NCBI GenBank assembly: GCA_030390025.1
Contig: JASTWF010000033.1
Location: 1,552,001 to 1,616,000, forward strand
DNA from: Squalus acanthias
Lineage: Eukaryota
Direction of reading: 5' to 3'
Length of the DNA stretch: 64,000 bases
A program made the position numbers and the translations under genes. Positions 9,793 through 64,000 of the stretch are shown piece by piece; within the stretch, counting starts at the first letter, position 1; the number at the start of each line of letters is the position of its first letter. The notes under the pieces are model-generated. The model searched no databases, was not told the origin of the DNA, and saw only the letters and a program-made list of their open reading frames with translations.

Positions 9793-9798
9793 GTCTCT

Positions 9799-9829
<31 letters not shown>

Positions 9830-9867
9830 TAACTGGATGGTTAGTGTTTCGAGCCCACCCAGGGACG
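9793..9867 (+). tRNA. tRNA-Asn(GTT) copy, probably a pseudogene
   Basis: GTCTCTGTGGCGCAATCGGTTAGCGCGTTCGGCTGTTTAACTGGATGGTTAGTGTTTCGAGCCCACCCAGGGACG. Extra T in the anticodon loop and B-box substitutions; T7 run at 9880-9886. Confidence 0.85.
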
Positions 9868-10080
9868 AAGAGTTTAACATTTTTTTCCCTTTATGGTTCT
9901 TTGACCCACAGTTCCAAGTTGTCACTATTTGCTTTGACTGCAGGAAAATATTCCGCACACATTGCTAGCTGTGCTGTTATCCAGTAAATTCCCACCCAAA
10001 TACTTTTATGAGTACTCATTTGAAATCAAATGATAAAAACATATCGTTGGATCATGTTCCTCCATCCAACCTGTTCGAAA

Positions 10081-17620: not shown

Positions 17621-18246
17621 ACGTGGCAACGAATCGTTGGGATAACTTTAAATATAATTGGGTCTATCCGTTTTAGAGGCAATTTGATTTTTGACTTGTT
17701 TCACAAGTAAATGCAATTCATGAATCTACTGCTTGCAGATGTAGTTACATGTATCTGTAATAATTATTCATTTATTAGGGGGCATCTGTCTTCATTCCAA
17801 ACATATTTTGTAAGTTGTCGGGACCTGGAACGCTCGACATGAACAGATGATGAAAGCTGATTGATCAATGATTTTAAAGGAGTTACACAGGTACTTGAGG
17901 ATGAGGAACTTATAGGGTTAGGGACAAAAAGCGGGGTGTGGGAGTAAGCATGGCTGCTCTTTCTAAACCATCACAGGCACGACGGGCCGAATGTCCTCCT
18001 GTGCTGTGAGTTCTATGATTCTATACATACACACCCACAGTTTATATTTTCACACGGCCTTGTTCACAGTTCTAACTATTGCCTACACAACGAAAGTTTA
18101 ATTGATTTTCAAAAGCTGCTCGACCTGTTGTGTGTTGGAGCAGTTTCCTAGTTTACTTTCCTGTGATGTGGTGATTCTGCGGGCGAATGACACGGTGTTT
18201 GAGAAACATTGATGTATGGAACATCTCCTACATTTATCCAAACGGA

Positions 18247-18320
18247 GACCTCTTGGCGGAACGGAAGTGCGCCTGATTTCTTAGATCAAGAAGGCTGCGT
18301 GTTCAAATCACGTCAGGACT
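18247..18320 (+). pseudogene. tRNA-Trp pseudogene
   Basis: GACCTCTTGGCGGAACGGAAGTGCGCCTGATTTCTTAGATCAAGAAGGCTGCGTGTTCAAATCACGTCAGGACT; anticodon arm disrupted. Confidence 0.8.
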
Positions 18321-18769
18321 TTAGCGTTGATTGGAGTCTGGATAATTCTGGAAGAATAAATTAATTGCTTTTTCACAATAAACAGAACCTTGCTATAATG
18401 TCCTTCTCACTAGTTCCCCAGTGTCATGGAGAGAAGCGACAGATGTCCTCATTTATTTAATGTAATAAACAGACACAAACACACGTGTTCAGTAAAGTGG
18501 TCCACACATGTTGATAAACCCTGCCCCCCTCCCCACTCCAGGCCATCTCCCAATGCGCTTCATAGAGATGTGATCAAAAATATGGAAGCCCAATCCTAAG
18601 AAGGAGCTATTAAAACGTTTGTCCAAAAGTCTCCTTAAAGCTAACGGTTTTAAGGAGCATCTTAAAGGAGGAGACGGAAGGTTTTGGGAAGGAAATTCCA
18701 GGCAGTGAGGACATGTTATTGCAGACTATTTGTAGTGTGAAGAGACCGGAGTCATAGAATCATTGAACC

Positions 18770-19395: not shown

Positions 19396-20535
19396 GACTG
19401 TGCTGAAGACTTGTGATCCAGAACTTGCTACACCATATGCAAGCTGTTCCATTACAGCTACAACACTGGCAGCTACCCGACAAAATGGAAAATTGCCCGG
19501 TTATATCCTGTCCACAAAGAAACAGGAACAATCCAATCTGGGCAATTGCCACCCCTTGAGTGTACTCTCAGTTATCAGCAACGTGATGGAAGGTGTCATC
19601 GAGAGTGCGATCAAGCAGCACTTACTCATCAATAACCTGCTCAACGATGCTCAGTTTGGATTCCGCCAAGGCCACGCGGCTCCAGAACTCAATACAGACT
19701 TGTTCCAAACATGGAAAAATAACTGAATTCCAGAGGGGAGGGGAGAGTGACTTCCCTTGAGATCAAGGCAGCATTTGACCAGGTGTGCCATCAAGGAGCC
19801 CTAGTAAAACTGAAGTCAACGTGAATCAAGGGAAATCATACCGAGCACAACGTTAGCTGGTCGTGGTTATTGGAGGCCCAACATCTCAGACAAAGGACAT
19901 CGTTGCAGGAGTTCCTCAGGGCAGTGTCCTCGGCCCAACCATCCTCAGCTGCTTCATCATTAAACTTCCCTTCACAATAAGGTCAGAAGTCGGGATGTTC
20001 ACTGATGATTGCCATTTACAACTCCTCAGATAATGATGGAGTCCATGCCCGAATGGAACAAGACCTGGAAGACATTAAGGCTTGGTCTGACAAGTGGCAA
20101 GTAAAATTCGCGCCATACATGTACCACGCAATGAATATCTCCCACAACAGAGAGTATAACCACCGCCCCTTGACGTTCAATGTTATTACCATAGCCGAAT
20201 CCCGCACCATTAATATCCATTGACCAGAAACTTAACTGGAACTGCCATATAAATACTGCAGCTGCAAGAGCTGGTCAGAGGCTGGGGCTTCTGCTTCTGC
20301 AGCAAGTGACTTACATTCTGACTCCCCTTGAAAGGCCTTTCCACCATCGAATGACACAAGTCTGGAGTGTGATGGGATATTCATCACTTGCCTGAATGAG
20401 TGCAGCTCCAAAAACACTCAAGAAGCTCGGCACCATCCAGGACAAAGCAGCCCGCTTGATTGGCACCTCATCCAGCACCTTTAACATTCACTCCCTCCAA
20501 GATCAACGCACTGTGGTTGCAGTGTGTATCATCTA
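19396..20535 (+). mobile_element. LINE (CR1/L2 group, second family) RT region, degraded
   Basis: VLKTCDPELA, QFGFRQGH, gcaggagttcctcagggcagtgtcctcggccca (GVPQGSVLGP), WSDKWQVKF. Homologous to 51835-52450 on the opposite strand. Confidence 0.85.
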
Positions 20536-20679
20536 CCGGAAACAGAGTTAACGTTTCAGGTCGATCATTTTGCACCATAGAGATGTAACAGGTTTTAAGC
20601 AAGTACAGAGGCAGGGAGAGTTGGGGGGAGCGGGGGGGGACTAAAAGGAAGCTCTGTAATTGGGTGAAAGGCAGGAGTG

Positions 20680-21605
20680 ATCTGAATCTGTCCAATTTCG
20701 CACGGTGGTTGTGCCACACAACATGATGGAGTGTGTTCTCAGTGTGAAGAGGGGATTTCGTCTCCACAAACAATGTGCGGTGGTTACTCCTACTAATTCT
20801 GTCATGGAGAGATGCTACTGGGGCTTATTTAGGACGGATTCAAGTAGGCTTTTCTCTCGTGTTGGTCTCTCACCACCTGCCGCAATTTCAGTCTTGCAGC
20901 TATATCCTTCAGGATTCGGCCAGCTCGGTCAGTAGTGGTGCTACCGAGCCACTTTAAGTGATGGGCATTGAACTCCACCACACAGAGTATATTCTGTGCC
21001 CTGTGGTATTCAAGAGGGAGGAGTAATAATTGATCAGCTGAGGTAGGTGGTAATCTGACGGAGGTTTCCTTGGTGATGGAGGAGTCTGGGACATTGGCTG
21101 AAAGGTATGATTCTGTGAGTATGACTATGTCAGACTGTTGCTTGACGAGTCTGTGGGACAGCTCTTCCAATTATGGCTCAATCCCCAGATGTCAGTGAGG
21201 AGGATCTCACATGGTTGACTGGGCTGGGCGTGCCCTTGCCGTGTTCTAATCCAATGCCTCGTGGTGTGTCCAATTGTATTCTATTTTTGCAACGGTTTGA
21301 TACAACTGATTGGATTGTTAGGCCATTTCTGAGGGCAACATATTTCTGTGGGTCTGGAGTCATATGTAGGACAGAGCAGGTGAGGATGGCATGTTTCCTA
21401 ACATAAGGGGCATTAGTGAACCGGTTGTGTTTATGACAATCTGATGGTTTCATGGCCACAATTACTGATATTCGTTTTTTCTTGCAGATTTATTGAATTT
21501 ATTGAGTTTAAATTCACAAACTGCCAAGGTGGGTTTGACCTCACCTCTCCGGATAATTAGCCCAGGCCTCTAGATTTCTGTGCCAGAAACGTTACCACTA
21601 TGCTA
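20680..21605 (-). mobile_element. 5' part of second LINE family: tRNA-like head, short leader, endonuclease start
   Basis: QQSDIVILTESYL in ORF 20829-21170; 21290-21605 is homologous to 53765-54075. Confidence 0.75.
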
Positions 21606-27414: not shown

Positions 27415-28346
27415 CTAGTTAGGACAGGAAGCTCTGCTTTGACTTTTCACTTTTTTAACCATTATCCGAACAAATGCCCAAGGAGAATTCACCAGCTTCT
27501 TCAGCTCTTCCCTGAATTTAGTTTGTGTAGCTGCATAAATACACGTGTTTGTACAGGAGCTCAAATACATCAGCAGATATCCGGTTTCAGTGGCGATGTA
27601 AGCAGGCGATATGTAATCGCCTCGGTGAAGCACGGCTAGGTTGTTAACTATAAAACTCACGGCAGACGTCAGCCACAACAATACAAAACTGCCCGATACT
27701 GTGAACAGTAAAATAATGGATTTCCTTCTGTTCTCTATCTCTGGATCGCTCTGATTGTCACTGCTGTGACCCCGGAGTCTCCTGCGGGCTCTACTGGCCA
27801 CTAAAATACGCCTGACTGTCAAACAATTAAGCAGTAATATCAAAACAAAAGGAAGCCACGTAATGAAAATATTTTCTAAGCGGAAGTAGGCTGCACCTGC
27901 AGGCGATGAAAAAAAGGCCGCACTGGGGCGGAAACCCCAGGGAACATTGTTGATTATTTGTTTGTGTTCATATGCAAACCAAAATGGGATGTTCTCTAAA
28001 TAAACCAGGACAGAGACCGTTGTTATAACCGCGGCCGCAGTTCTCACTGTGCAATACTTTGTTTTAAACTTCTGACAACATATAGCAATAAAACGGTCAA
28101 ATGTGAAGGAGACGGTAAACCACACCGACATATCCAAGTTGGCACTACACATATACATAATGAACTTACAAACAGCAGTGTAGGACAGGAATGAATATGG
28201 GAAGTGTTTACTGAAAATGTGATATAGGATTACATTGACGATCATGACCAGTAGATCTGCTGTTGCCATGGCCACCATGTAGACAGAGATACATTTGGAA
28301 AGACCGCATTTTCCTCTGGAGAGAATCACCATTGTCAATAGGTTCG
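27415..28346 (-). CDS. GPR139-like: GPR139-like class A GPCR, exon 2 (TM1 end to stop)
   Basis: Open frame ANLLTMVILSRGKCGLS...MATADLLV...FTFDRFIAIC...RRKSIILLF...SSCTNTCIY. Acceptor ctttcttacag at 28347. Confidence 0.92.
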
Positions 28347-29855
28347 CTGTAAGAAAGAGGGACAAGAGTAAGTAATGGGGACACTCGGATAAATCTTACA
28401 TCGTATTGTGAGATTAACCGATGTTTTCCTACTGAGGGTTATGCACACGTTATTATATAGACGAACATTAACAATAGACCTTTTCAAACGAAAGTAATCA
28501 TTAAACACTCAATATCGAGGGACTGAAAATACTCCGTCCTTCCAGCACGCTTCATTCAGACTGTTTCAAGTTGGTGGGTAGGGGTGGATGCTGGGAGGGT
28601 AGCTCGTATTCAGTATCGGCAATGGTAACGGATAGCGACCCCAACACCACCGACAACCAGGCACTGATGGCTGAACGGAGGGGAAGGTTGACTTTGGGCG
28701 ACAGTGTAAAACGGGCGACAATGGATCAGCCGACCATGATACATCTCTTCTGAATCAATCTCCATCACTATCGCCACTGACACTATATTCATGCATGAAA
28801 ACAGAACATTCTGGAAATACACAGCAGGTCAAGCATTATCTGTGTAGAGGAAAGCAAAGTTTACGTTTCATGTTGAAACCTTTCGTCAGAAATCCATTGA
28901 GGCTCCATTCACACTTTAACGGTGCGGTCCAAGCCATACCGCAGTACCTCGCAGGGACGGTCCAGTTACAGATAAAAGTCCCTTAAAGGGCAACCTTTGA
29001 CGGTTCTGTAACTTGTTAATTTTCACAGTCAATAATGAAGCGGATTCCCTTACATATATCCAAACATACATTCCATTGCAGTGTGGAGCACGGAAACCAT
29101 CCCGCCATGAGGCTGGGACCATGTGATGCACCGAGCCAATTTGATGAGTTACGACAGCGGCACCAGGGAGCAATCGATGGAATTTTACATTTAATCTCAT
29201 CGGTTTCATTGGCGAGGGGCATCTCGGGAGCGGCATCAGATGTCAGCTCTATTCAATATAATTTACAAACAATTACTGGAAAGATATGAATTTAAATAAT
29301 ACATTCAGCAGAGAAACAAACATTCGATGTAGGTCGAAACTCTGCGCTTTTTCTATTTATTGTCGCCTCGAGGAATCTGCTCGGTAACAGAGCGGGAGCT
29401 GGTGGAGCTGCGAAGGTTATTTGCAGCCAAGGGGAGGGGAACAGCTCCCTGAGCGGCAATTATTGCTCCAAATATCTTTCACCGTCCTCTGATGGGTGGA
29501 GGTGGTTGCAGTACAATGAATTATCAACCTTAAGTAGACAGGAAACAACGGTACAGATGAAATGATTACCATGGACACTAAGCAACACATTCTTTAATGA
29601 TCTATGTACTGTTGGAGGGGCCGGGGAATCAGCCTCGCCCTCCCTCAGTATAGGGAGGAAAGTTGAGCTTTCGGTGGCCAGGATCGCGCGACCAGAGCAG
29701 CGCCTCAGCGACCGCGCTGACTGGTAGGATTCCCGCTGATTTTCACCGACTTATCCCGGTGGATAATTGACTCTGCAATTAGGACATTCTCGGAATCTGT
29801 TACGTTAACACTGAGATAGTCAACAGCTATTAGACAACAGAATATATTAACTTAC

Positions 29856-42283: not shown

Positions 42284-42383
42284 TACGATAGCAAAATACT
42301 GCGGATGCTGGAAATCTGAAATAACAACAGAAAAAGCTGGAAAAACTCAGCAGGCCAGGCAGCATCCGTGGAGAGAGAAAGAG

Positions 42384-42420
42384 AGTTAACGTTTCAGGTC
42401 GATGACCTTTCGTCAGAACT
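42384..42420 (-). ncRNA. Minimal type I hammerhead ribozyme motif in the PLE 3' repeat
   Basis: AGUU-CUGACGA-A-AGGUC-AUC-GACCU-GAAA-CG-UU-AACU: conserved core, helix I and II pair, palindromic minimal helix III. Confidence 0.75.
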
Positions 42421-42696
42421 GTGAAGAGCCGGAAATCAAATAGATTTAAGGCCCGAGTAAAGCTGGGAAAAGGGGGAGGGGATAAAAGAACAAAAGGGGA
42501 GATGAAGAGACATTAAGAGACATTAAGAGATATGCAAGGCTAGAGGTGGTGTTAATGTGACAGATTAAGGCTGAAAGAAGTGTGAAATCCACTGGCAGAA
42601 TGAAGGACAGCTGCCAGCTTCTAGGAGGAAAAAAAAGGTGGGGGGGGCAAATAAAAGGATGGAAAAAATAAAATATAAATGTGATTGGAGCTGAGG

Positions 42697-45445
42697 TTAT
42701 GATCTAAAATTGTTGAACTCGATATTGAGTCCAGAGGGCTGTAGCGTGCCTAAACGAAAGATGAGGTGCTGTTCCTCGAGCTTACGCTGCGCTTCCGTGG
42801 AACAGTGTAATAGGCCAAGGACGGTGAGGTCAGAGTGGGAGTGAAGCGGTGAATTAAAGTGACAGGCCACCGGGAGCTCGGGGTCCCCTTACGGACTGAA
42901 CGGAGGTGTTCCGCAAAGCGGTCACCCAATCTGCGTTTGGTCTCCCCAATGTAGAGGAGACCACATCGTGAGCAGCGAATACAGTATACTAAATTGCAGG
43001 AAGTACAAGTAAATCGCTGTTTCACCTGGAAGGGGTGTTTGGGGCCCTGGACAGTGGGAAGGGGGGAGGTGTAAGGGCATGTGTTGCATCTCCTGCGCGT
43101 GCACGGGAAGGTGCCGGGCGAAGGGGAAGGGGTGCTGGGGGTGTTAGAGGAGTGGACTAGGGTGTCGCGGAGGGAGCGGTCCCTGCGGAATGCTGAAAGG
43201 GGTGGTGAGGGGAAGATGTGTTTGGTGGTGGGATCACGCTGGAGGTGGCGGAAATGGCGGAGGATGATCCGTTGAATGTGGAGGCTGGTGGGGTGAAAGG
43301 TGAGGACAAGGGAAAACCTATCGTGTTTCCGGGAGGGAGGGGCAGGGGTGAGGGCAGAAGTGCGGGAGATAGAACGGACACGGTCGAGGGCCGTGTCGAC
43401 CACGGTAGAGGGGAATCCTCGGTTGAGGAAAAAGGAAGACATGTCGGAAGCACTGGTATGGAAGGTGGCATCATCAGAGCAGATGCGGCGGAGACGGAGA
43501 AACTGGGAGAATGGAATAGAGTCCTTACAGGAGGCGGGGTGGGAGGAAGTGTAGTCCAGGTAGCTGTGGGAGTCAGTGGGCTTGTAGTGAATGTTAGTCA
43601 ATAACCTATCCCCAGAAATGGAGATGGAGAAGTCGAGTAAGGGAAGGGAAGAGTCGGAGATGGACCATGTGAAGGTGAGGGAAGGGTTTAAATTGGAAGC
43701 ATAGTGAATGAAATGTTCTAGTTCAGGGCGAGAGCAGGAGACGGCACCGATACAGTCATCAATGTACCGGAAAAAGAGGTGAGGGAGGGGACCCGAGTAG
43801 GACTGGAACAAAGAGTGTTCCACATATCCCACGAAAAGGCAGGCATAGCTAGGACCCATGCGGGTACCCATAGCAACACCTTTAATTTGGAGGAAATGGG
43901 TAGAGTCAAAGGAGAAGTTGTTCAATGTGAGAACAAGTTCAGCCAGGCGGAGGAGGGTGGTGGTGGATGGGGACTGGTTGGGCCTCTGTTCAAGGAAGAA
44001 GCGGAGCGCCCTCAGGCCATCCTGGTGGGGAATGGAGGTGTAGAGGGATTGTACGTCCATAGTGAAGAGGAGACGGTTGGGGCCGGGAAACTGGAAACTG
44101 TTAAAATGGCGGAGGGCATCGGAAGAGTCGCGGATGTAGGTGGGAAGAGACTGGACAAGGGGAGAAAAAATAGAGTCGAGATAGGAAGAGATAAGTTCCG
44201 TGGGGCAAGAACAGGCTGAAACGATGGGTCTACCGGGGCAGTCCTGTTTGTGGATCTTGGGAAGGAGGTAGAAGCGGGCTGTGCGCGGTTGGGGAACTAT
44301 GAGGTTGGCGGCCGTGGGGGGAAGATCTCCAGAGGAGATGAGGTCAGTGACGGTCTTGGACACGGTGGCTTGATGTTCAGTAGTGGGGTCATGGTCCAGG
44401 TGGAGGTAGGAGGAGGTGTCAGAGAGTTGGCGTTCAACTTCCGCTAGGTAGAGGTCGGTTCGCCAAACAACAACAGCGCCACCCTTGTCAGCAGGTTTAA
44501 TGACAATGTCAGGGTTGGATCGGAGAGAATGGAGTGCTGCAAGTTCAGAGGGAGGTAGGTTGGAGTGAGTGAGGGGAGCAGAGAAATTGAGCTGGCCGAT
44601 GTCGCGGCGGCAGTTAGCAATGAAAAGATCTAGAGAGGGTAAGAGGCCAGAGGGAGGGGTCCAGGTGGAACGAGAATTCTGAAAGCGGGAGAAAGGGTCA
44701 GCCGTGTGGGGGGAAGACTCCTGGCCAGAGAAGTGGGCACGTGACGGAGGCGGCGGAAAAAGAGCTCAGCATCGTGCCGAGCTCGAAATTCATTGAGATG
44801 GGGGCGTAAGGGGATGAAGCTCAGGCCTTTGCTGAGGACTGATCGTTCGGAGTCAGAGAGGGGAAGGTCAGAGGGGATAGTGAAAACGCGGCAGGGGGTG
44901 AGATTGGGAGAAGGGGGGTCAGAGGAAAGTGAAGGGGAAGAAGGTTCCGGAGGGGCGTTAGTGTCCGAGAGTTGTTGAAGCTTGCGATCCTTGACATCGG
45001 AAAGGAAGAAGAAAAGTTTTTTGTTGAAGCGTCGGATGAGTCTAAGGATGAAATGGAACTGTGGACCCGGACAGCTTTGAGATAGAGTGCGTCGGTGCTG
45101 CTGAAGAGAGAGGTCGAGAGTGTTCATGTGGCGCCACATGGCGTTGAGCGTGGATCTCAAGATGCGGCGAGAGCAGTAGTTCGAGGAACGATGAATATCT
45201 TGGAGATATTTGTAATCCTGGGTTGATCCGAAACACGAAGGGTGGAAGTTTAGTTGGAATCCACGTGGGATAAGTCGGAACCGGAGACAGTTGCTGAGGA
45301 AAGTAATGTGGCTGTGAAACCGAGTCTTGGAAGATACCTGATCAAACACGAGAAGGGAAACTGAAATCAATGAAGATGAACAAGGTTGAAGAGCCAAACG
45401 GAAATCCCGTCGAAGAGAAGAGCAGATCTTCTTCAAGGTAGGCAT
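42697..45445 (-). pseudogene. PLE RT + GIY-YIG endonuclease ORF (about 916 aa) with two single-base frameshifts
   Basis: ORFs 44630-45562 and 42750-44363 join via a shift near 44742. A second shift near 42886 restores RKGDPELPVACHFNS...EFNNFRS*. Confidence 0.85.
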
Positions 45446-45580
45446 TCCTAGAAGAGAGGTGGCAGTGAACCAAACACTAATACGATAGCAAAATACTGCG
45501 GATGCTGGAAATCTGAAATAACAACAGAAAAAGCTGGAAAAACTCAGCAGGCCAGGCAGCATCCGTGGAGAGAGAAAGAG

Positions 45581-45617
45581 AGTTAACGTTTCAGGTCGAT
45601 GACCTTTCGTCAGAACT
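45581..45617 (-). ncRNA. Minimal type I hammerhead ribozyme motif in the PLE 5' repeat
   Basis: Identical to 42384-42420. Confidence 0.75.
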
Positions 45618-46095
45618 GTGAAGAGCCGGAAATCAAATAGATTTAAGGCCAGAGTAAAGCTGGGAAAAGGGGGAGGGGATAAAGGAACAAAGGGGGAGAT
45701 GAAGAGACATTAAGAGACATTAAGAGATATACAAGGCTAGAGGTGGTGTTAATGTGACAGATTAAGGCTGAAAGAAGTGTGAAATCCACTGGCAGAATGA
45801 AGGACAGCTGCCAGCTTCTAGGAGGAAAAAAAAGGTGGGGGGGGCAAATAAAAGGATGGAAAAAATAAAATATAAATGTGATTGGAGCTGAGGTTATGAT
45901 CTAAAATTGTTGAACTCGATATTGAGTCCAGAAGGCTGTAGCGTGCCTAAACGAAAGATGAGGTGCTGTTCCTCGAGCTTACGCTGCGCTTCCGTGGAAC
46001 AGTGTAATAGGCCAAGGACGGTGAGGTCAGAGTGGGAGTGAAGCGGTGAATTAAAGTGACAGGCCACCGGGAGCTCGGGGTCCCCCTTACGGACT

Positions 46096-46465: not shown

Positions 46466-46859
46466 GGACAGACCGTCTTAAGTTTAAGGTGCCCGAAGTT
46501 TCCTGAGTTCTATTTTCTTCCTTTCTATATTTACTGCGTCCTTTTCTCTGCAATTATTGTTTCCTATTATTCTGTTTTCACTTGTTCCTTGTGCTTACTG
46601 TCTCCTAAGATTCCTTATTCCTGTTCCCTGTGTTTCCTTTGCTCCCTGTGATAGGTCAAGTCCATACAAAGTATGAGGGTACCAAAGTGCTAATTGAAAG
46701 GGAGCAACAAGTACCCCAAAATAAACAGGGTCTCCGAAGTCTGAATTACATAGAAATTACAACATGGAATCGGCCCAAACATTCCGTATAGTTGATAATT
46801 AACTTCAAATTACATGTGCACACCCGGTTCCCATATCACTTTATCCCACATTACATTTT

Positions 46860-47145
46860 TTATTTGTTTATTGTTTGTGAGCATCGCTGGCAAGGACAGC
46901 ATTTATTGGCCATCCCGAATGGCTCCTGAGAATGTGATGGTGAGCCGCCTTCTTAAACCGCTGCAATCCGTGTGGTGAAGGTACTCCCACAGTGCTGCTA
47001 GGGAGGGAGTTCCAGGATTTTGACCCAGCGGCGATGAAGGATCGACGATATACTTCTATGTCAGGATGGTGTGTGACTTGGAGGGGAAGTTGGAGGTGGT
47101 GGTTTTCCCATGCGCCTGCTACCCTAGTTGGAAGATGTCGCGGGT
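46860..47145 (-). mobile_element. LINE/SINE 3'-end fragment
   Basis: Recalled shark repeat tail (gctggcaaggacagcatttattg...gggagggagttccaggattttgacccagcg). Confidence 0.55.
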
Positions 47146-47274
47146 TACCACCTATCTAATATATTCAAAACCGTTCACATTTTTAATGTTCATTCAATGA
47201 TGTTGCCAGTTACTGATAATCAAAGTTGCCATGAGAAGTTGATTTGAATGAGCAATCTATGTTGCCGGAGACTT

Positions 47275-47480
47275 CCCGACGGGACGTTAAGTCGATGCCT
47301 TCTCTGACCTCTTGTGTGGACGTTAAAGATCCCATGGCACTATTGAGAAGAAGAGCAGTGGAATTCTCCCCGGCGACCTAACAAGTATTTAAACTCAAAC
47401 AACATTATAACAGATCATCTGGTGATTATTACAGTGTGGAAGTATGATGTGCCCAAATTGGCCACCACATCTACTGCACT
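47275..47480 (+). mobile_element. DeuSINE central domain (left part)
   Basis: ggacgttaaagatcccatggcactatt...gaagagcag..ttctccccgg matches the recalled Deu-domain consensus. Confidence 0.7.
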
Positions 47481-47482
47481 AC

Positions 47483-49116
47483 TGAAATAAAAACAGACAA
47501 TGCGGGAGATACTCAGCAGGTCAGGCAGCATCTGTGAAGCGAGAAACAGAGTTAACGTTTCAGGTCGATGAACTTTGCTCATTGAGGGTGGTGGTGGATG
47601 GGGACTGGTTGGTCCTCTGTTCAAGGAAGAAGCGGAGGGCCCTCAGGACATGCTGGTGGGGGATGGAGGTGTAGAGGGATTGTACGTCCATAGTGAAAAG
47701 GAGGCCGCTGGGGCCGGGAAACTGGAAACTAGCGGAAGTTGATCGCCAACTCTCTGACACCTCCTCCTACCTCCGCCTGGACCTTGACCCCACTACCGAA
47801 CGTCAAGCCACCGTTTCCAACACTGTCACTGACCTCATTTCCTCTGGAGATCTTCGCCCCACAGCCGCCAAACTCATAGCTGCCCAACCAGCACAGCCCG
47901 CTTCTACCTCCTTCCCAAGATCCATAAACAGGTCTGCCCTTGTAGAATCATCGTTTCAGCCTGTTCTTGCCCCACAGAACTTATCTCTTCCTATCTCGAC
48001 TCTATTTTTACTCCCCTTGTCCATTCTCTCCCCACCTACATCTGTGACTCTTCCGATGCACTCCGTCACTTTAACAGTTTCCAGTTTCCTGGCCCCAACC
48101 GCCTCCTTTTCACTATGGACGTGCAATCCCGTCTCCTGCGTTATCCCACCACCAAACACATCTTCCCCTCACTTCCCCTATCAGCATTCCGAAGGGACCG
48201 CTACCTCCGCGACTCCCTGGTCCACTCCTTTATCACCCCAAACAACACTTCCCCTTCGCCCGGTACCTTCCCGTACAAGCGCAGGAGATGCAACACCTGC
48301 CCTTATACCTCCCCCCTTCACACTGTCCAGGGCCCCAAACACCCCTTCCAGGTGAAACAGCGATTTACTTGTACTTCTTGCAATTTAGTATACTGTATTC
48401 GCTGCTTACGATACGGTGTCCTCTACATTGGTGCGACCAAACGCAGATTGGTTGACCGCTTTGTGGAACACCTCCGTTCAGTCCGTAAGGGTGACCCCGA
48501 GCTTCCGGTCGCCTGTCACTTTAATTCTCCGCTTCACTCCCACTCAGACCTCACCTTCCTCGGCCTCTCGCATTATTCCACTTAAGCACAGTGTAAGCTT
48601 GAGGAACAAGACCTCATCTCTCGATTCGGCACTTTAAAGCCTTCTGGACTCAACATGGATTTCAACAATTTCAGATAATAACTTCGGCTCCTATCATATA
48701 TATATTTTTATTCACACTTTTTGTCTGTGTCTTTTTCTCTTCTCTCCCTCATGACAGCTGACTTTCATTCCACCAGCGCGATTCACACTTCATCTGGAGC
48801 CTTCCTTTGTTTCTTAACCTGTCCAATTACCATCTCCTTTTGCCTTGAATATCTCTTAATGTCTATTAACCTCTCCTGCCTTCTATCCTATCACAGACCT
48901 TCCCTTTTGTTCTTTCATCCCCGCTCCCCTTCCCCACCTCCCACACTTGCTTAAATATCTGTTACATTTCCTGCTTTTTTCCAGTACTGACGAAAGGTCA
49001 TCGACCTGAAAAGTTAAATCTGTTTCTCTCTTTACAGATGCTGCCTGACCTGCTGAGTATCTCCAGCATTTTCTGTTTTTCATTCAGATTTCCAGCATCT
49101 GCAGTATTTTCTTTTT
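47483..49116 (+). mobile_element. Rearranged Penelope-like element (inverted 5' piece, internal deletion)
   Basis: 47483-47728 is minus-strand terminal repeat plus RT piece. 47729-49116 is plus-strand RT start, a deletion near 48128, GIY-YIG (ORF 48115-48585) and a 3' repeat with a decayed hammerhead at 48983-49019. Confidence 0.88.
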
Positions 49117-50807: not shown

Positions 50808-51835
50808 AGGGGAGGTGCAACGAGACCTGGGCGTCATGGTACATCAGTCACTGAAGGTGGGAAGGCAAGTGCAGCAGGCAGTCAAGAAAGCAAATGGCAT
50901 GATGGCCTTCATAGCAAGGGGATTTGAGTACATGAGTAGGGAGGTGATGCTACAGTTGTACAGGGCCTTGGTGATGCCACACCTGGAGTATTGTGTGCAG
51001 TTTTGGTCTCCTAACTTGAGGAAGGACATTCTTGCTATTGAGGGAGTGCAACGAATGTTCACTAGATTGATTCCTGGGATGGCCAGACTGACATATCAAG
51101 AAAGGCTGGATCAACTGAACTTTTATCCTCTGGAGTTCAGAAGAATGAGGGGGGATCTTATAGAGACGTTTAAAATCCTGACTGGTTTAGACAAATTAGA
51201 TGCGGGCAGAATGTTTCCAATGTTAGGGAAAGCTAAAACCAAGGGTCACAGTCTAAGGATAAAGGGGAAGCCATTTAAGACTGAAATGAGGAGGAACTTC
51301 TTCACCCAGAGAGTGGTGAATCTGTGAAATTCTCTACCACAGAAGGTTGTTGAGGCCAGTTCGCTAAATATATTCAAAAGGGAGTTAGATATAATACTCA
51401 CAACTAGGGGGATCAAGGGGTATGGCGAGAAAGCAGGAATGGGGTACTGAGGTAGCATGTTCAGCCATGAACGCATTGAATGGCGGTGCAGGCTCGAAGG
51501 ACCGAATGGTCTACTCCTGCACCTATTGTCTATGTTTCTCTGTTTCTATGTTTAAAAATAAGGGGTCGCCCGTTTAAGACAGAGATGAGGAGAATTTTTT
51601 TTCTCACAGAGGGTCGTGAGTCTTTGGAACTCCCTTCCTCAGAGGGCGGTGGAAGCAGAGTTTTTGAATATTTTTAAGGCAGTGGTAGATAGATTCTTGA
51701 TCAGCAAGGGGGTGAAAGGTTATCGGGGGTAGGCAGGAATGTGGAGTAATCAGATCAGCCATGATCTTATTGAATGGCGAAGCAGGCTCGAAGGGCCGAG
51801 TGTCCTACTACTGCTCCTAATTTGTATGTTCGTAT
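50808..51835 (+). mobile_element. Two stacked CR1 3' ends
   Basis: ORF 50815-51327 is a CR1 C-terminus with a (tatgtttc)n tail near 51530-51552. A second shorter 3' end spans 51553-51835. Confidence 0.9.
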
Positions 51836-54075
51836 GAATGTCAAGGGGTGGTGGTTAGACTCTCGCTTGTTGGAGATAGTCATTGCCTGGCACTTCTGTA
51901 GTGCAAATGTTACCTGCCACTTATCAGCCCAATCCTCCACGTCGTCCAGGTCTTGTTGCATGCGGGCATGGACTGCTTCATTATCTGAGGAGTTGTGAAT
52001 GGCACTGAACACTGTGCAATCATCAGAAAACATCCCCATTCCTGAACTTATGTTGGAGGGAAGGTCATTGATGTAGCAGCTGAAGATGATTGGACCTAGG
52101 ACACTGCCCTGAGGAATTCCAGCCAACAATGCTCTGGGGTTGTGATGATTGACCTTCAACCACCACAACCATCTTCCTTTATGTTAGGTATGATGACACC
52201 TTCCATCACTTTACTGATGATTGAGAGTAGACTGATGAGGCGGTAATTGTCCGGATCGGATTTGTCCTGCTTTTTTTGGACAGGACATACCTGGGCAGTT
52301 TTCCACATTGTCGGATAGATGCCAGTGTTTTAGTTGTATTGGAACAGCTTGGCTAGAGGCGCGGCTAGTTCTGGAGCACAAGCCTTCAGCACGATAGCCG
52401 GGATGTTGTCGGGGTCAACAGCCTTTGCTGTATACAGTGCGCTGAGCCGTTTCTTGATATCTCGTGGAGTGAATCGAATTGGCTGAAGACTGGCTTCTGT
52501 GATGGTGGGCACCTCAGGAGGAGGCCGATATGGATCATCCACTCGGCACTTCTGGCTGAAGATGGTTTTAAACGCTTCAGCCTTGTATTTTGCACTCACG
52601 TCCTGGGCTCCACCATCATTGAGGATGGGAATATTAATGGAGCCTTCATCTATCATTCATTATTTAATAGTCCACCACCATTCACGACTGGATGTGGCAG
52701 GACTGCAGAGCATTGATCAGACCCGCTGACTGTGGGATCGCTTAGCCCTGTCTATAGCATGCTGCCTCCACTTTTTAGCATGCATGTGGTACTTTGTTGC
52801 AGCTTCCCCTGGTTGGCACCTAATTTTTAGGTACACCTGGTGTTGCTCCTGTCATACCCTTCTACATTCCTTATTGAACCAGGGTTGGTCCCCTGGCTTG
52901 ATGGTAATGTTAGAGTGAGGGATATGTCGGGCCATGAGTTTACAGATGGTGGTGAAATATAATTCTGCTGCTGCCCCACAGCACCTCATGGATGCCCAGT
53001 TTCGAGCTGCTAGATCTGTTCTGAATCATTTCCCATTTTGCACAGTGGTAGTGCCAGACAACACGATGGAGGGTGTCCTCATGTGTGAAGACGGGACTTC
53101 GTCTCCACGATGACTGTACGGTGGTCACTGCTACCAATATTGTCATGGACATATGCATCTGCGACAGGTAGATTGGTGAGGACGAGGTCAAGTAGGTTTA
53201 CCCCTCATATTGGTTCTCTCACCACCTGTCGCAGGTCCAGACTGGCAGTTATGTCCTTCAGGACTCGGCCAGTAGTGGTGCTACCGAGCCACATCTTGCT
53301 GATGGACATTAAAGTCCTCCACCCAGTGTACATTCTGTGCCCTTGCTACTCTCAGTGCTTCTTCAAAGAGATGTTCAACATGGCAGAGTACTGATTGATC
53401 AGCTGAGGGAAGGCGGTAGGTGGTAATCAGCAGGAGGTTCCGCTTGCGCGGAGTCAATGATGAGGACTCCCAGGGCCAGTCCTTCCCGACTGTATACCAC
53501 GGTGCCGCCACCCCTGATGGGGCAGGACATACCCAGTGATGGGGATGGAGGAGTTTGGGTCATTGGCTAAAAGGTATGATTCTGTGAGTATGACTATGTC
53601 AGGCTGTTGCTTGACTGGTCTGTGGGACACCTCTCCCAATTTTGGCACAAGTCCCCAGATGTTGGTGAGGAGGACTTTGAAGGTCGACTGGGCTGGGTGT
53701 GCCGTTGCCGTGTACGGAGCCAGTGCCGAGTGGTTCGTCCAGTTCCATTCTTATTATTTTGTTTAGTAGCGGTTAATTACAACTGAGGGCAGTTCAGAAT
53801 CAATCACATTGCTGTGGGTCTGGAGTCACATATCGGCCAGACCAGGTAAGGACGGCAGATTTCCTTCCCTAAAATACATTAATGAACAGATGGGTTTTTA
53901 CGACAATCCGATAGTTTCATAGTTACCATTACTGATACAAGCTTTTTATTCCAGATTGATTTAATTAACTGAATTTAAATTCCCAGTTGCAGTGGTGGGC
54001 TTTGAACTCATGTCTCTGGATCATTAGTCCAGGGCGGTGGATTACTAGCACCAGTGACATTACCACGACGCTACC
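51836..54075 (-). mobile_element. LINE (second family) with tRNA-like 5' head, endonuclease and RT, internally deleted
   Basis: QQPDIVILTESYL, LLLITTYR, DPDNIPAIVLKACAPELA, GIPQGSVLGP..YINDLP, WADKWQVTF. A/B-box-like head at 53990-54075. Confidence 0.85.
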
Positions 54076-56789: not shown

Positions 56790-59030
56790 GTAAATGAAAT
56801 GTCTGCATACTGTGATTTGAATGGAGTGGAATAAAATAAATGGAAAGATCCGACAGCAGCTTTTGCTCTGAAAACACTCGACAAACATTCCGCAAAAGAG
56901 CCCAGTCCAGAGAAACAGCAATTAAATTATTCTGAAAATAATAATAAAATAAATATAACATATATATATTTTGTTTTTACAAAAGTCTTGCCTTGTTTTA
57001 GTTTTGTTGGGAATTAATGGGAGAGTAAGGGCACACAGCAGGATATGCTCTGACATATCCCACAAATATTCCCCGATACAGTCCAGTCCAGAAAAAAATC
57101 AAATGGCTTGTTGTCAAGTGGCTTGTTGTAAATCTGTAGCTTTGATTTTTACATGTCTTGAAAGAAAGGCAAAGTAAGATCCCTCAGCAGTGCGGTCTGG
57201 AATGAACTCAGTATGATCTAAAGATTTTTTTCAGACAAGAGATGCAGTACCAATGCACACGGCAGATAAATTGAACAGAGATAAGCCCTGCATACACACC
57301 AGCTTTTGCTCTCTGTCTCTCTCTCACACACACACACACACACAAACACAGGCCAGTCTGCAAAATTGCCACACAATGCTGTCAGCAATGAAAGACATTT
57401 GATTTCTCTCATTGCTCTGCTGTGTTTGGCAGTTTAAAAGTAAAAAAAAACACTTTCCCATATCTTAATTTTTCATTTTGCGGTCTCCAAAATTAGGCTT
57501 TCTATTCTGCATCAAAAGCAAAACTCTGCGGATGCTGGAAATCTGAAATTAAAACAGAAAATGTTGCAAATACTCACCAGGTCAGGCAGCATCTGCGGAG
57601 AGAGAGAGAAACAGAGTTAATTCAGCTTGATGACCTTTCGTCAGATTCTGGCAAGATTCTGACGACAGGTCATCGAACTGAAATGTTAACTATGCATCTC
57701 CATCTCTCCACATACGCTGCCTGACCTGCTGAGTTTTTCAGCATTCTCTGTTTTGATTTCTATTCTGCCTGTTGTCTTAATTTAATTTGTCTCTCTCATT
57801 GCCTGCCTGCCTTGTCTTGATTTGGGTAGAGTGGAATAAAATGAATGCAAAGGTCCACAAAGACATTTTTCAGTATCTCACTGACTGTCTTGAAGTGAAG
57901 TGAAGTGAAATAAAGTGCAATAAAGTGATACACATCAGCATTACATGTGGACCAGTCAAGAATGAATTCAATAGGGTTTAATACAACAACAGCAGTTAAT
58001 AAGACAGCAGTCCACATCTCACACAAACACCAGCTTTTGCTCTCTCCTTCACTCTCTCTCACTCACACACACACAAACACGCACCCTGGCCAGCCTTCAG
58101 AGGGATGAATGCCGTGTTGGAAAATTAAAACCAAAAATACACTTTTCTGTATCGTATCTTTTCACTTTGTGGCCTACAGAAACAGGCTTTCTATTCTGCA
58201 CCTTGCCTTGTGATTTCATGTCTAGCTCTCTCACTGGCCATCTGTCTGTCTGTCTCTCACTCACAATATCTCCCTCCCATCCACAGTGAACTAAAACTTA
58301 CAGTGACATGACACACAGATTCAGCAATTTGCAGAAACATAGACACCCACACACATACAGATACACTCACACAGAGTCTGCAATTTGCAGACTCACAGAC
58401 ACCCACACACATACAGACACACTCACACAGACTCTGCAATTTCCAGAAACTCACACACATACATCCATTCTGAAAGGGTGCAGCCTGGAGTGTCTATTTT
58501 TAATGATGTCCGTTCCTGGCTGTGCAGCCTTGTTTGATAAGGCCAATCCAACAGGAAGAAGTGAAGCCGAGGCCCAAGAAATCCGGGTCCCCGAGAGGAA
58601 ATGTAAGCCCTGAGGGTGAAAAGAAGTAAATACAATCAGGAATAAATAATAATATATATACTTTACTTCTATTAACTAAATGTCTGCCTGTCTGTGGTTT
58701 GCCTGGAGTGTAATAAAATGAATGGAAAGATCGCACAGCAAGTTTTGCTCTGAAAACAGCCCAAGCACATTCCCCAATAAAGCCCAGTCCAGAAAAAAAT
58801 CAAATAGATTATTCTGAAAAAATTTAAAAAGTATAATATGTACGGTTTTTTTTACAAATGCCTTGTCTTGTTTGAGTTGGGATGAAGGGGAGAGCAAGAT
58901 CCCACAAACCAGGATGTGCAATGAAACACTCCACAATCATTCCCCTATAAAGTCCAGTCCAGAAAAATATCAAATGGGTTGATGTATATATGTAAATTTG
59001 CTTTTTACTGAATTCTTGAATGAAAGACAA
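56790..59030. repeat. Diverged local tandem duplications
   Basis: 56790-57150 resembles 58670-59020 (atggaaagatc..cagc..ttttgctctgaaaac..gcccagtccaga); 57290-57510 resembles 58020-58200. Confidence 0.7.
57511..57756. mobile_element. Short fold-back Penelope terminal-repeat element with 12-bp TSD
   Basis: Two inverted copies of the PLE 3' end meet at their hammerhead cores (57612-57690). tttctattctgc occurs at 57499-57510 and 57757-57768. Confidence 0.8.
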
Positions 59031-59034
59031 AGAA

Positions 59035-62000
59035 TGTCTCTCTCAGACTCTCTCTCTCTCACACTGTCTCTCTCAGACTCAGTCTCTCACACACTGTCTC
59101 TCTAAGACTCTCTCTCACACACTGTCTCTCTCAGACACTCTCTCACACACTGTCTCTCACATTCTCACACTCACACTCTCTCGCACACTCTCTCACAGTC
59201 ACTCTCACACTCACTCTCACACTCACTCTCACACTCTCTCACTCACTCTCACACTCACTCTCACACTCTCTCACACACTCTCTCACACTCTCACTCACAC
59301 TCTCTCACACTCCCTCTCACGCTCTCTCTCACACTCTCCCTCACACTCTCTCACTCTCTCTCACACTCTCTCTCACTCTCTCTCACACACTTTCTCTCAC
59401 ACTCTCTCTCACACACTCTCTCACACTCACTCTCACACTCTCTCACACTCACTCTCACTCTCAAACTCACTCTCACAATCTCTCTTACACTCTATCTCAC
59501 ACTCTCTCTCACAATCTCTCTCACTCTCTCTCTCGCACTCTCTCTCTCTCTCTCACACTCTCTCACACACTCTCTCTCACACACTCTCTCACACTCACTC
59601 TCTCACACTCACTCTCTCACACTCACTCTCTCATACTCACTCTCTCTCACACACCGTCTCTCTCAGACTCACTCTCTCACTCAAACTCTCTCTCAGAATC
59701 AAACTCTCACACACACATACTCTCTCTTAAACTCAGTCTCTCATACACTGTCTCTCTCAGACTCTCTCTCTCTCACACATTCTCACACATTCACTCTCTC
59801 ACACACTGTCTGTCAGACTCACTCCCTCATACACTCTCTCTCAGCCTCACTCTCTCACATACTGTCTATCTGGCTCACTCTCTCACACAACGTCTCTCAC
59901 ACTCACTCTCTCACGCTCACTCTCGCACACTGTCTCTCTCAGACTCTCTCTCACACATAATCTCTCTCAGACTCTCTCTCTTACACACTGTATCTGACTC
60001 ACTCTCTCATTTTCGGACTCTCTAAGACCATCTCTCTCACACTCACTCTCTCACGCACTGTCTCTCCCAAACTCTCTCTCACACACTCTCTCAGATTCAA
60101 TCTCTCACACACTCTCTCTCTCAGACTCACTCTCTCATACACTGTCTTTTCAGACTCACTCTCTCACACACTGTCTCTCTCAGACTCACTCTCTCGCACA
60201 TTGTCTCTCTCAGACACTTTCTCACACACTGTCTCTCACACTCTCTCACTCACACTCTCTCACACACTCGCTTACACTTACTCTCACACTCACTCTCACA
60301 CTCACTCTCACACTCTCTCTCACACTCTCTCTCACACTCTCTCTCACACTCCTTCTCACACTCTCTCTCACACTCTCTCTCACACTCTCTCTCACACTCT
60401 CTCTCACTCTCTCTCACACACTCTCTCTGACACTCTCTCTCACACTCTCTCTCACACTCACTCTCACACTCTCTCTCTCACACTCTCTCTCACACGCTCT
60501 CTCACACTCTCTCTCACACTCTCTCTCACACTCCCTCTCACACTCTCTCTCACACTCTCTCTCACACTCCCTTTCACTCTCTCTCACACACTGTCTCTCA
60601 CACTCTCTCACACTCACTCTCTCACAGTCACTCTCTCACAGTCACTCTCTCACACATACACTCTCACCCTCACTCTCTCACACTCACACTCTCACACACC
60701 GTCTCTCTCAGACTCACTCTCTCACACACACTCTCTCTCAGAATCACTCTCTGAAACACACTCTCTCTCTTTAACTCACTCTCTCATACACTGTCTCTGT
60801 CAGACTCTCTCTCACACATTCTCACACATTCACTCTCTCACACACTGTCTGTCAGACTCACTTCCTCACACACTCTCTCTCAGATTCACTCTCTCACACA
60901 CTGTCTCTCACACTCACTCTCTCACGCTCACTCTCGCACACTGTCTCTCTCAGACTCTCTCTCACACACTATCTCTCTCAGACTCTCTCTCTTACACACT
61001 GTATCTGACTCACTCTCTCATTTTCGGACTCTCTAAGACCATCTCTCTCACACTCACTCTCTCACGCACTGTCTCTCCCAAACTCTCTCTCACACACTCT
61101 CTCAGATTCAATCTCTCACACACTCTCTCTCTCAGACTCACTCTCTCATACACTGTCTTTTCAGACTCACTCTCTCACACACTGTCTCTCTCAGACTCAC
61201 TCTCTCGCACATTGTCTCTCTCAGACACTCTCTCACACACTGTCTCTCACACTCTCTCACTCACACTCTCTCACACACTCGCTTACACTTACTCTCACAC
61301 TCACTCTCACACTCACTCTCACACTCCTTCTCACACTCTCTCTCACACTCTCTCTCACACTCTCTCTCACACTCTCTTTCACACTCTCTCTCACTCTCTC
61401 TCACACACTCTCTCTCACACTCTCTCTCACGCACTCTCTCACACTCACTCTCTCACACTCACACTCTCTCACACACTCTCTCACACTCACTCTCACACTC
61501 ACTCTCACACTCACTCTCTCACACTCACTCTCACACTCACTCTCACACTCTCTCTCTCACACACTCTCTCACATGCTCTCTCACACTCGCTCTCACACTC
61601 TCTCTCACACTCCCTCTCACACTCTCTCTCACACTCTCTCTCACACTCCCTTTCACTCTCTCTCACACACTGTCTCTCACACTCTCTCACACTCACTCTC
61701 TCACAGTCACTCTCTCACAGTCACTCTCTCACACATACACTCTCACCCTCACTCTCTCACACTCACACTCTCACACACCGTCTCTCTCAGACTCACTCTC
61801 TCACAGACACTCTCTCTCAGAATCACTCTCTGAAACACACTCTCTCTCTTTAACTCACTCTCTCATACACTGTCTCTCTCAGACTCTCTCTCACACATTC
61901 TCACACATTCACTCTCTCACACACTGTCTGTCAGACTCACTTCCTCACACACTCTCTCTCAGACTCACTCTCTCACACACTGTCTCTCACACTCACTCTC

Positions 62001-64000
62001 TCACGCTCACTCTCGCACACTGTCTCTCTCAGACTCACTCTCTCGCACATTGTCTCTCTCAGACACTCTCTCACACACTGTCTCTCACACTCTCTCACTG
62101 ACACTCTCTCACACACTCGCTTACACTTACTCTCACACTCACTCTCACACTCACTCTCACACTCACTCTCACACTCTCTCTCACACTCTCTCTCACACTC
62201 TCTCCCACACTCCTTCTCACACTCTCTCTCACACTCTCTCTCACACTCTCTCTCACACTCTCTCTCACACTCTCTCTCACTCTCTCTCACACACTCTCTC
62301 TCACACTCTCTCTCACGCACTCTCTCACACTCACTATCTCACACTCACACTCTCTCACACACTCTCTCACACTCACTCTCAAACTCACTCTCACACTCAC
62401 TCTCTCACACTCACTCTCACACTCACTCTCACACTCTCTCTCACACTCTCTCTCACACGCTCTCTCACACTCTCTCTCACACTCTCTCTCACACTCCCTC
62501 TCACACTCTCTCTCACACTCTCTCTCACACTCCCTTTCACTCTCTCTCACACACTGTCTCTCACACTCTCTCTCACACACTCTCTCACACTCACTCTCTC
62601 ACAGTCACTCTCTCACACATACACTCTCACCCTCACTCTCTCACACTCACACTCTCACACACTGTCTCTCTCAGACTCACTCTCTCACACACACTCTCTC
62701 TCAGAATCACTCTCTGAAACACACTCTCTCTCTTTAACTCACTCTCTCATACACTGTCTCTCTCAGACTCTCTCTCACACATTCTCACACATTCACTCTC
62801 TCACACACTGTCTGTCAGACTCACTTCCTCACACACTCTCTCTCAGACTCACTCTCTCACACACTGTCTCTCACACTCACTCTCTCACACTCACTCTCGC
62901 ACACTGTCTCTCTCAGACTCGCTCTCTCACACTGTCTCTCTCAGACTCACTCTCTCACACACTGTATCTGACTCACTCGCTCATACACGGTCTCTCTCAG
63001 ACCATCTCTCTCAGATTCACTATCTCACTCACTGTCTCTCTCAGACTATCTCTCACACACTCTCTCAGTTTCAATCTCTCACACACTCTCTCTCTCAGAC
63101 ACACTCTCTCATACACTCTCTCTCTCAGACTCACTCTCTCATACACTGTCTCTCTCAGACTCACTCTCTCCTACATTGCCTCTCTCTCAGACTCACTTTC
63201 TCACACACTGTCTCTCTCAGTCTCACTCTCTCACACACTTTCTGTCAGACTCACTCTCTCACACACTGTCTCTCTCAGACTCTCTCTCAAATACTGTCTC
63301 TCAGTCTCACTCTCACACACACCGTCTCTCTCAGACTCTCTCTCACACACACTGTCTCTCTCAGACTCACTCTCTCTCTCACTGTCTCTCTCAGACTCAC
63401 TCTCTCAAACACTGTCTCTCTCAGACTCTCTCTCACTGTCTCTCTCAGGCTCACGCTCTAAAAAAACACTGTCTCTGTCAGACTCACTTTCTCACACACT
63501 CTCTCTCTCAGGCTCACTCTCTCACCCACTGTCTCTCTCAGACTCACTCTCTCAGACACCGTCTCTCTCAGACTCACTCTCTCACACACTGCGTCTCTCA
63601 GACTCACACTCTCACACTGTCTCTCTCAGACTCTCTCTCACACACTGTCTCATTCAGACTCACTCTCTCACACACCGTCTCTCACAAACTCACTCTCACA
63701 CGCTGTCTCTCAGAATCAGTCTCACAAACAGTCTCTTTCAGACTCACTCTCGCACACACTGTCTCTCTCAAACTCACTCTCTCAAACACCAGCTCTCTCA
63801 GACTCACTCTCTCACACACTGTCTCTCTCTCAGACTCACTCTCTCACACACTGTCTCTCTCAGACTCTCTCTCAAACACTGTCTCTCAGTCTCACTCTCA
63901 CACACACCGTCTCTCTCAGACTCTCTCTCACACACACTGTCTCTCTCAGACTCACTCTCTCTCACTGTCTCTCTCAGACTCACTCTCTCACACACTGTCT
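59035..64000. repeat. CT/CA-rich low-complexity repeat with higher-order periodicity
   Basis: (CT)n/(CA)n mosaics such as cactctct and ctgtctctctcagactca; runs to the window end. Confidence 0.95.

Follow-up and report, generated by a model that had tools for sequence, protein, structure and literature searches.

A tRNA-like head at the 5' end of ORF1-less Zenon LINEs in Squalus acanthias, a putative Pol III promoter on a coding retrotransposon

By the textbook division of labor, Pol II serves coding LINEs and Pol III serves short, noncoding SINEs. A stretch of 64,000 nucleotides from Squalus acanthias (contig JASTWF010000033.1, positions 1,552,001 to 1,616,000; "the window" below) contains, on its minus strand, a LINE that begins like a tRNA-derived SINE, and it raises the question of which family this element belongs to and what such a head might do on a coding retrotransposon. 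A sequence-only reading of the window had proposed a SINE/LINE hybrid with a Pol III head. As set out below, the A/B-box head on an ORF1-less LINE stood up, and the use of Pol III itself is putative. That reading could not tell whether the element had already been described; the family is in fact published, as elasmobranch Zenon (Stuart et al. 2026, PMC13343379).

Zenon copies in the window and in published sequences

By the likeness of their 5' parts, the two head-bearing copies in the window (A and B; Table 1) are decayed members of this known elasmobranch LINE. An 18-nt leader motif from the window had seven matches in the supplement of PMC13343379, all of them in elasmobranch Zenon rows (SquAca_Zenon-1, SquAca_Zenon-2, SquAca_Zenon-3, CarCar_Zenon-1, RhiTyp_Zenon-1, ScyCan_Zenon-1, and HypSab_Zenon-1), and the first 400 nt of each Zenon reference row were compared. 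Over that span, the elasmobranch rows have the same head, leader, and junction sequence as copy A and do not differ in kind from the window copies, which makes the latter members of the family. The SquAca rows were the closest: copy A differed from SquAca_Zenon-1 at ~10 positions in the first 115 nt (~91% identity, by eye). According to the accessible text of PMC13343379, all Zenons are without ORF1, and the elasmobranch elements consist of APE and RT, measure 2.9 to 3.3 kb, and end in a poly-A tail, which within the CR1 group is unique to Zenon. Near-full-length copies number hundreds to thousands per genome, intact ORF2 is almost absent (between 0/59 and 3/612 in Table S3, where a single cell is garbled), and the elasmobranch Zenons were never submitted to a repeat repository. 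A CR1-Zenon-like element is also noted in the accessible part of the whale-shark genome preprint (10.1101/443036). The term "tRNA" does not occur in the main text or supplement text of PMC13343379, nor does "polymerase III" in its main text, and these texts hold no remark on a tRNA-like head, a T-run deficit, or an out-of-frame start. A full-text literature search, with Repbase, Dfam, and most subscription papers outside its scope, returned no tRNA head on a shark Zenon and no Pol III-driven LINE. The head is already contained in published sequences, and its promoter type has apparently gone unremarked.

Table 1. Zenon-derived features in the window
Feature	Position	Strand	Remarks
Copy A, Zenon LINE	~54081-51830	minus	decayed; cut at 51830 by another repeat
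tRNA-like head, copy A	54081-53988	minus	box scan and relaxed ARAGORN
Leader (5' UTR)	53987-53749 (~240 nt)	minus	present in all 7 elasmobranch Zenon rows (first 400 nt)
Short upstream frame	53748-53599	minus	conserved AUG; 49 codons in copy A; overlaps endonuclease start out of frame
Decayed endonuclease-RT frame, copy A	53678-51830	minus	frameshifts, stops, internal deletion
Copy B: head, leader, and part of endonuclease	21609-20678	minus	aligns with copy A
Piece C: RT and downstream part, same Zenon family	19400-20540	plus	orientation opposite to that of copy B
Piece D: probable 3' end of Zenon family	46855-47140	minus	end of coding frame, then A-rich tail

Copies A and B aligned at 75.6% identity over 545 columns, starting from 54077 and 21609, respectively, and then at 71.3% over 439 columns. 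The pairwise alignment began at the head, with nothing aligned above it, and the flanks 5' of the two copies did not match each other. The sequence-only reading had placed its feature at 53650 to 54075, had seen the same head-leader-endonuclease junction independently near 21605, and had taken this recurrence as evidence against a chance SINE next to a LINE. The feature is real, with a 5' end that actually lies a few bases higher, at ~54081; the second junction was confirmed; and because the junction recurs with unrelated flanks and in seven published rows, the copies are neither chance neighbors nor one segmental duplication sharing unique flanks.

Piece C was 75.7 to 80.7% identical to copy A and had protein matches as well. 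Copies A and B and piece C all lack 3' ends; an A-rich tail is found on piece D, which we infer to belong to the Zenon family. Piece D overlaps neither A nor C, and no protein bridging D to C was found among the proteins retrieved. A look-up of target site duplications gave no repeat between the 5' flank of A and the 3' flank of D and, for copy B, only an 8-mer with one mismatch, all window copies being incomplete. Since no such duplication was found, a single insertion comprising A and D was rejected; nested insertions may have removed the duplication. Copy B (the 5' part, minus strand) faces piece C (the 3' part, plus strand), with ~630 nt of the element absent between them, an arrangement that looks like a later inversion. 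Twin priming was rejected as its origin because the inverted 3' piece sits downstream of the 5' piece. The joint itself (20530-20690) matches short repeats beside Penelope-like copies at 48873-49026, 45574-45687, and 42377-42488.

The window as a whole is filled with CR1-like and Penelope-like fragments. Penelope-like RT frames were recognized by eye at 42750-44765 (minus strand; open for 671 aa) and 47675-48585, and at 47270-47400, just upstream of piece D, lies a fragment with some resemblance to an antisense Deu-type SINE. A satellite array with a 26-nt unit starts at ~30200 and gave ~400 overlapping 300-nt matches per family, and a long CT/CA-rich low-complexity tract at 59000-64000 has internal repeats that produce spurious long frames. 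An open frame of 326 aa at 27415-28395 (minus strand) resembles, by eye, the seven-transmembrane "probable GPR139" proteins P0010 and P0013.

Read-derived contig data containing part of the stretch came from 20 runs in 10 studies. In the DNA-type run X5, 21833 contigs aligned to the stretch. Their mean summed depth reached 4.6e5 in the ORF, 6.0e5 in head plus leader, and 4.0e3 in the flank, a drop of ~150-fold from the leader to the flank above 54118; by the tool's own caveat, summed contig depth does not give a copy number and reflects expression poorly.

The head, the leader, and the absence of ORF1

On the minus strand, copy A carries an A box (TAGCGTCGTGG, 54073-54063) with one mismatch to the consensus and a B box (GTTCAAAGC, 54007-53999) 66 nt after the A-box start, which confirms the A/B-box-like head reported from sequence alone. 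In copy B, the corresponding minus-strand boxes lie at 21605-21595 and 21540-21532, with a spacing of 65 nt and one mismatch. The box patterns were consensus motifs, and a scan for pairs with at most one mismatch in total returned 14 pairs on the two strands of the 64 kb, two of which are those at the 5' edges of A and B. With its threshold relaxed to 80%, ARAGORN called a tRNA-like gene at 54080-53988, in copy A only; at default settings, it missed the head of copy A. Neither head had an Rfam tRNA match at E values up to 10, and the best phage match, to an annotated tRNA-Met over the B-box arm, was weak (E 0.3). The first 412 nt of copy A folded no better than shuffled sequences (z 0.26), weak evidence given that the copy is decayed, and acceptor-stem pairing was absent, by eye, from the visible parts of the published rows. 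The candidate promoter boxes are thus clear in Zenon heads, and a cloverleaf is not.

The 5' ends of SINEs and tRNAs lie 5 to 10 nt before the A box. By eye, the same distance holds for all seven published elasmobranch rows, from five species, and a consensus B box is present in six of the seven (five by exact motif, one by eye). The 65- to 66-nt spacing of the boxes in the Zenon head exceeds the 47 nt found in other local SINE heads, which, like the lack of an Rfam match, weighs against the Pol III reading. The window held no third copy of the Zenon head and no stand-alone SINE with that head. None of its other four tRNA-headed repeats (18235-18476 and 9792-9868 on the plus strand, 1296-1535 and 1009-1083 on the minus strand) matched it; three of them have the 47-nt spacing, and 18235-18476 and 1296-1535 are 81.7% identical to each other. 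The suggestion that the element might be the parent of local SINEs is thus unsupported, there being no third head copy and no match to the other tRNA-headed repeats.

Behind the head, copy A is without ~20 nt near 53785 that are kept in copy B, and 163 contig loose ends at this place show them. At 53683, the loose ends of 66 contigs run on into this leader and have one base more. Ten proteins with the endonuclease start were found, and in two of these, which are whale-shark gene models, the leader is translated into peptides ahead of the endonuclease (P0014; P0017, E 2.8e-10 and 4.5e-19). The contigs, the whale-shark gene models, and the published rows together establish the head-leader-endonuclease junction as a property of the family. 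Only 403 nt separate the element start from the K codon of the endonuclease, and the longest AUG frame within them has 49 codons. ORF1 is absent from the Zenon copies here, as the sequence-only reading had claimed; this is an already published trait of Zenon and is not new. The leader seems unlike the Deu domain. Of the raw-read runs X21 and X22, the latter contributed no reads and X21, from another organism, only eight, all partial and all on the leader core at 53774-53945, a very faint hint that this segment may be a conserved SINE-body-like sequence outside the Zenon family.

Other Zenons differ from the elasmobranch ones at this end. The hagfish elements EptBur_Zenon-1 and EptBur_Zenon-2, the coelacanth element LatCha_Zenon-1, and lepidopteran Zenon are likewise ORF1-less members of the CR1 group with poly-A tails, but the first 400 nt of the hagfish and coelacanth rows showed no such head by eye, and two of them have a T4 run there. 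According to the accessible text of PMC6740152, Persaeus, a deletion derivative of lepidopteran Zenon with the Zenon 5' UTR in it, is not homologous to tRNA and lacks a Pol III promoter. A LINE with tRNA-like sequence has been described in the RTE clade: RTE-1_DAn and elements related to it (Kojima 2018, PMC5786205) match many tRNA-derived SINEs in this way, and they are given there, in a single sentence, as a source of accidental matches, with neither an element position nor a promoter role stated; no other paper naming RTE-1_DAn was found. Pol III heads of small-RNA origin, fused to retroelement sequence, are found in the tRNA-headed SINEs built on pieces of bipartite LINEs (Bov-tA, MAR1, SINE2_Gav, and SINE2-1_AMi; PMC5786205) and in the TRIMp3 elements Helenus and Cassandra (PMC10886601, accessible text). 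These are short and noncoding, whereas the Zenon head sits on a full coding element. Joined as it is to an EN-RT frame, the head does not make the Zenon copies SINEs, which are defined as nonautonomous, noncoding, and shorter than 700 nt. Two SINEs of cartilaginous fishes, SacSINE1 with a Deu domain and an L2-2_CM tail and HE1 with a V domain and an HER1 tail, have tRNA-derived heads too; their descriptions, in the accessible parts of PMC5499810 and PMC3747384, set them apart, the reported partners being L2 or CR1 and not Zenon. Motif searches in the supplements of PMC4824008 (one file outside the search), PMC7245038, and PMC11481361 gave no match in the files covered.

The coding frame and its start

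In copy A, the stretch KVLLTNIWGL...PDIVILTESYL begins with a K codon at 53678, and the RT matched Pfam RVT_1 (E 2.9e-14, 51770-52183), which bears out the earlier claim of an endonuclease start near 53680 running on into RT. Exo_endo_phos was matched by a close relative, P0018, at E 0.0014, below the curated cutoff, and was not matched by the 75-aa piece from the window. By family design, EN and RT share one frame, which is broken in the window copies. Shark proteins matched the frame of copy A at 64 to 85% identity, and the named matches were from sharks. The RT piece of copy A was 60% identical to piece C and 33 to 37% identical to local CR1 RTs, indicating that it is not a canonical CR1. 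Neither a full-length ORF2 nor a clade-level name came out of the protein searches; an Atlas search with the RT gave generic RT clusters only. Pattern scans for related DNA in viral and metagenome contigs returned nothing, and scans with P0003 found four distant metagenome loci (25 to 36% identity) and none in viral and genome contigs. Pieces of the LINE frame also occur in shark gene models (P0001, P0006, P0007, P0010, P0011, P0013, and P0024-P0030), including ones named aldo-keto reductase, anoctamin, cystathionine beta-synthase, and GPR139-like. These are probably annotation artifacts, with some exonization possible.

No AUG lies near the start of the endonuclease frame. The original reading overlooked a short, conserved frame upstream, which overlaps the beginning of the endonuclease out of frame. 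Nine AUGs precede the endonuclease in copy A, and all except the one at 53748, which opens this upstream frame, lead to a stop within 31 codons. The AUG is present, by eye, in six of the seven published rows and missing in SquAca_Zenon-3; the frame itself had no Pfam match and no Atlas match. Copy A lost 1 nt at ~53681, and the extra base is present in 64 contigs and 66 loose ends. In the HypSab row, the only one with the junction visible intact, the endonuclease frame is -1 relative to the upstream AUG, and the same relation appears in the contigs and from the spacing in copy B. Comparing the visible rows by eye, we found three between-row differences immediately upstream of the junction that leave the peptide of the upstream frame unchanged and two immediately downstream of it that leave the endonuclease unchanged; certain other differences on the upstream side do alter the peptide. 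Taken with the -1 frame relation, this pattern weakly suggests that translation may start at the 53748-type AUG and undergo a -1 shift. A comparable frame, short and overlapping, lies upstream in RTE elements. At the PAK/KVLL junction, no canonical slippery heptamer was seen by eye. P0014 has SPVDPAK joined to VLLTNIW, and P0015, P0016, and P0019 carry the upstream-AUG peptide and join it to the endonuclease at other places; such gene models favor copies whose indels happen to fuse the frames. Read-through of the conserved leader AUG-GCC-UAG as the start of ORF2 was also considered and was rejected because the frame is not kept: in six of the published rows, the next AUG follows at 55, 55, 55, 54, 51, and 47 nt (by eye).

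T-runs, transcription, and rival explanations

The sequence-only reading had proposed looking for T4+ runs on the sense strand as a check on its Pol III head, and the counts came out in its favor. We counted T-runs on the sense strands of A, B, C, and D together (4589 nt, of which the 261 nt of D are from a presumed member). Against the expectation from base composition, TT occurred 183 times (228 expected), TTT 23 times (50.8), and TTTT 3 times (11.3), and A-runs were normal (AAA, 106 observed and 117 expected; AAAA, 35 and 34). Four local CR1 stretches, used as a control (6795 nt), were not depleted (TT, 460 observed and 417 expected; TTT, 124 and 103; TTTT, 30 and 25.6). Relative to length, the numbers of T-runs differed between Zenon and CR1 (3 versus 21; binomial p 0.006). 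When the expectation came from a first-order Markov model, in which the TT deficit is absorbed, the TTTT count was not significantly low (3 observed, 5.05 expected). All three T4 runs were private to copy A (0/3 shared), and 8 of 19 CR1 runs recurred in another copy, a comparison in which each CR1 run had up to eight comparators and each Zenon run only one. No T4 run was seen by eye in the visible 400 nt of the seven elasmobranch rows. With CR1 as the only control, the deficit could be a Zenon-wide or a codon effect; it fits, and does not prove, that Pol III transcribes all 3.3 kb. In run X15, which we guess to be RNA and which may be DNA, head and leader were ~10-fold deeper than the ORF, compared with 1.3-fold in X5. 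This is a lead only and could reflect promoter activity or, equally well, short derivative RNAs.

On balance, we favor the view that the tRNA-like head probably served as an internal Pol III promoter for full-length Zenon RNA, with some confidence. Target-primed reverse transcription is established for LINEs. We hypothesize that an ancestral shark/ray Zenon took up the 5' portion of a tRNA-derived SINE (or of a tRNA) by template switching and that the captured head became the new 5' end and internal Pol III promoter of a 3.3-kb ORF1-less element. Selection would then have removed T4 terminators along the 3.3 kb, and the full-length RNA would undergo target-primed reverse transcription starting at its poly-A end. 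Production of the enzyme is the least certain step. Uncapped RNA with nine upstream AUGs, as in copy A, is a poor message. For the enzyme, we favor rare internal initiation at the upstream AUG followed by a -1 shift near PAK/KVLL; less probably, it might come from a non-AUG start or from protein supplied by Pol II read-through RNAs. The complete scheme, in which Zenon would be an autonomous coding retrotransposon transcribed end to end by Pol III from a SINE promoter acquired in a shark/ray ancestor, purged of terminators over 3.3 kb, and translated from uncapped RNA by internal initiation and a -1 shift, is a tentative proposal to which we give slightly less than even odds. According to the accessible text of PMC10886601, LINEs are transcribed by Pol II, and Pol III processivity limits SINEs to 100 to 700 bp.

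That general rule, along with the need for the ORF to be translated, lends weight to a different account, in which the captured SINE 5' part is fixed in the element but serves as an ordinary Pol II promoter or 5' UTR or is simply a passenger, with Pol III giving short RNAs at most and the low T content having other causes. LINEs commonly exchange 5' UTRs, the X15 excess over head and leader fits short transcripts only, and TTTT is not significantly low under the Markov model. Against this stand the seven published rows, which start just before the A box, and the retention of the boxes across sharks and rays in those rows; moreover, the coding body is poor in TT, TTT, and TTTT alike and not in A-runs. 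We regard this account as unlikely overall, though still deserving serious weight. The sharpness of the 5' end, close to tRNA position +1, would also be accounted for if the tRNA-like fold were a processing signal at which a read-through RNA is cut in an RNase P-type reaction, yielding uniform 5' ends like those made by the ribozymes of R2, RTE, and Ingi; six LINE clades are known in which a ribozyme defines the 5' end (PMC5786205). However, the acceptor stem is unpaired, by eye, in the visible published rows, the shuffle-like folding of the decayed copy A points weakly the same way, and the T-run deficit would be left unexplained. We consider such processing very improbable.

Two further explanations deny that the head belongs to the element. 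LINEs that target small-RNA repeats exist, such as Dewa and Keno of the Tx1 clade, and Zenon might be a target-specific LINE inserted at a fixed site in an abundant SINE, head and leader being target DNA. Were this so, the head and leader would not be expected to show a depth in X5 just 1.3-fold that of the ORF; nor does it agree with the 5'-truncated piece D, whose assignment is presumptive and which has no leader upstream, with the lack of any free head copy in the 64-kb window, or with the colinearity of leader, conserved AUG, and ORF in the visible rows of five species. Its probability appears to us slightly lower still than that of processing. Finally, in a window so dense in SINEs and LINE fragments, a SINE and a 5'-truncated LINE could have become adjacent by chance and the segment been duplicated once, but the flanks of A and B are unrelated, the same junction occurs in many contigs and in whale-shark gene models, and the seven consensus rows from several species refute the idea, leaving it a negligible probability.

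Returning to a Pol III promoter in the head as the preferred reading, a widespread shark/ray LINE would appear to carry a SINE promoter on its coding form and to avoid Pol III stop signals. This opens two questions: can an autonomous retrotransposon be driven by Pol III, and how would its RNA be translated? If the reading is true, the boundary between LINEs and SINEs is blurred, and a Pol III RNA serves as both message and template. The usual story of SINE birth would be reversed, as a head-bearing LINE could yield a SINE by one internal deletion, and SINE annotation in shark genomes may be counting the 5' ends of LINEs.
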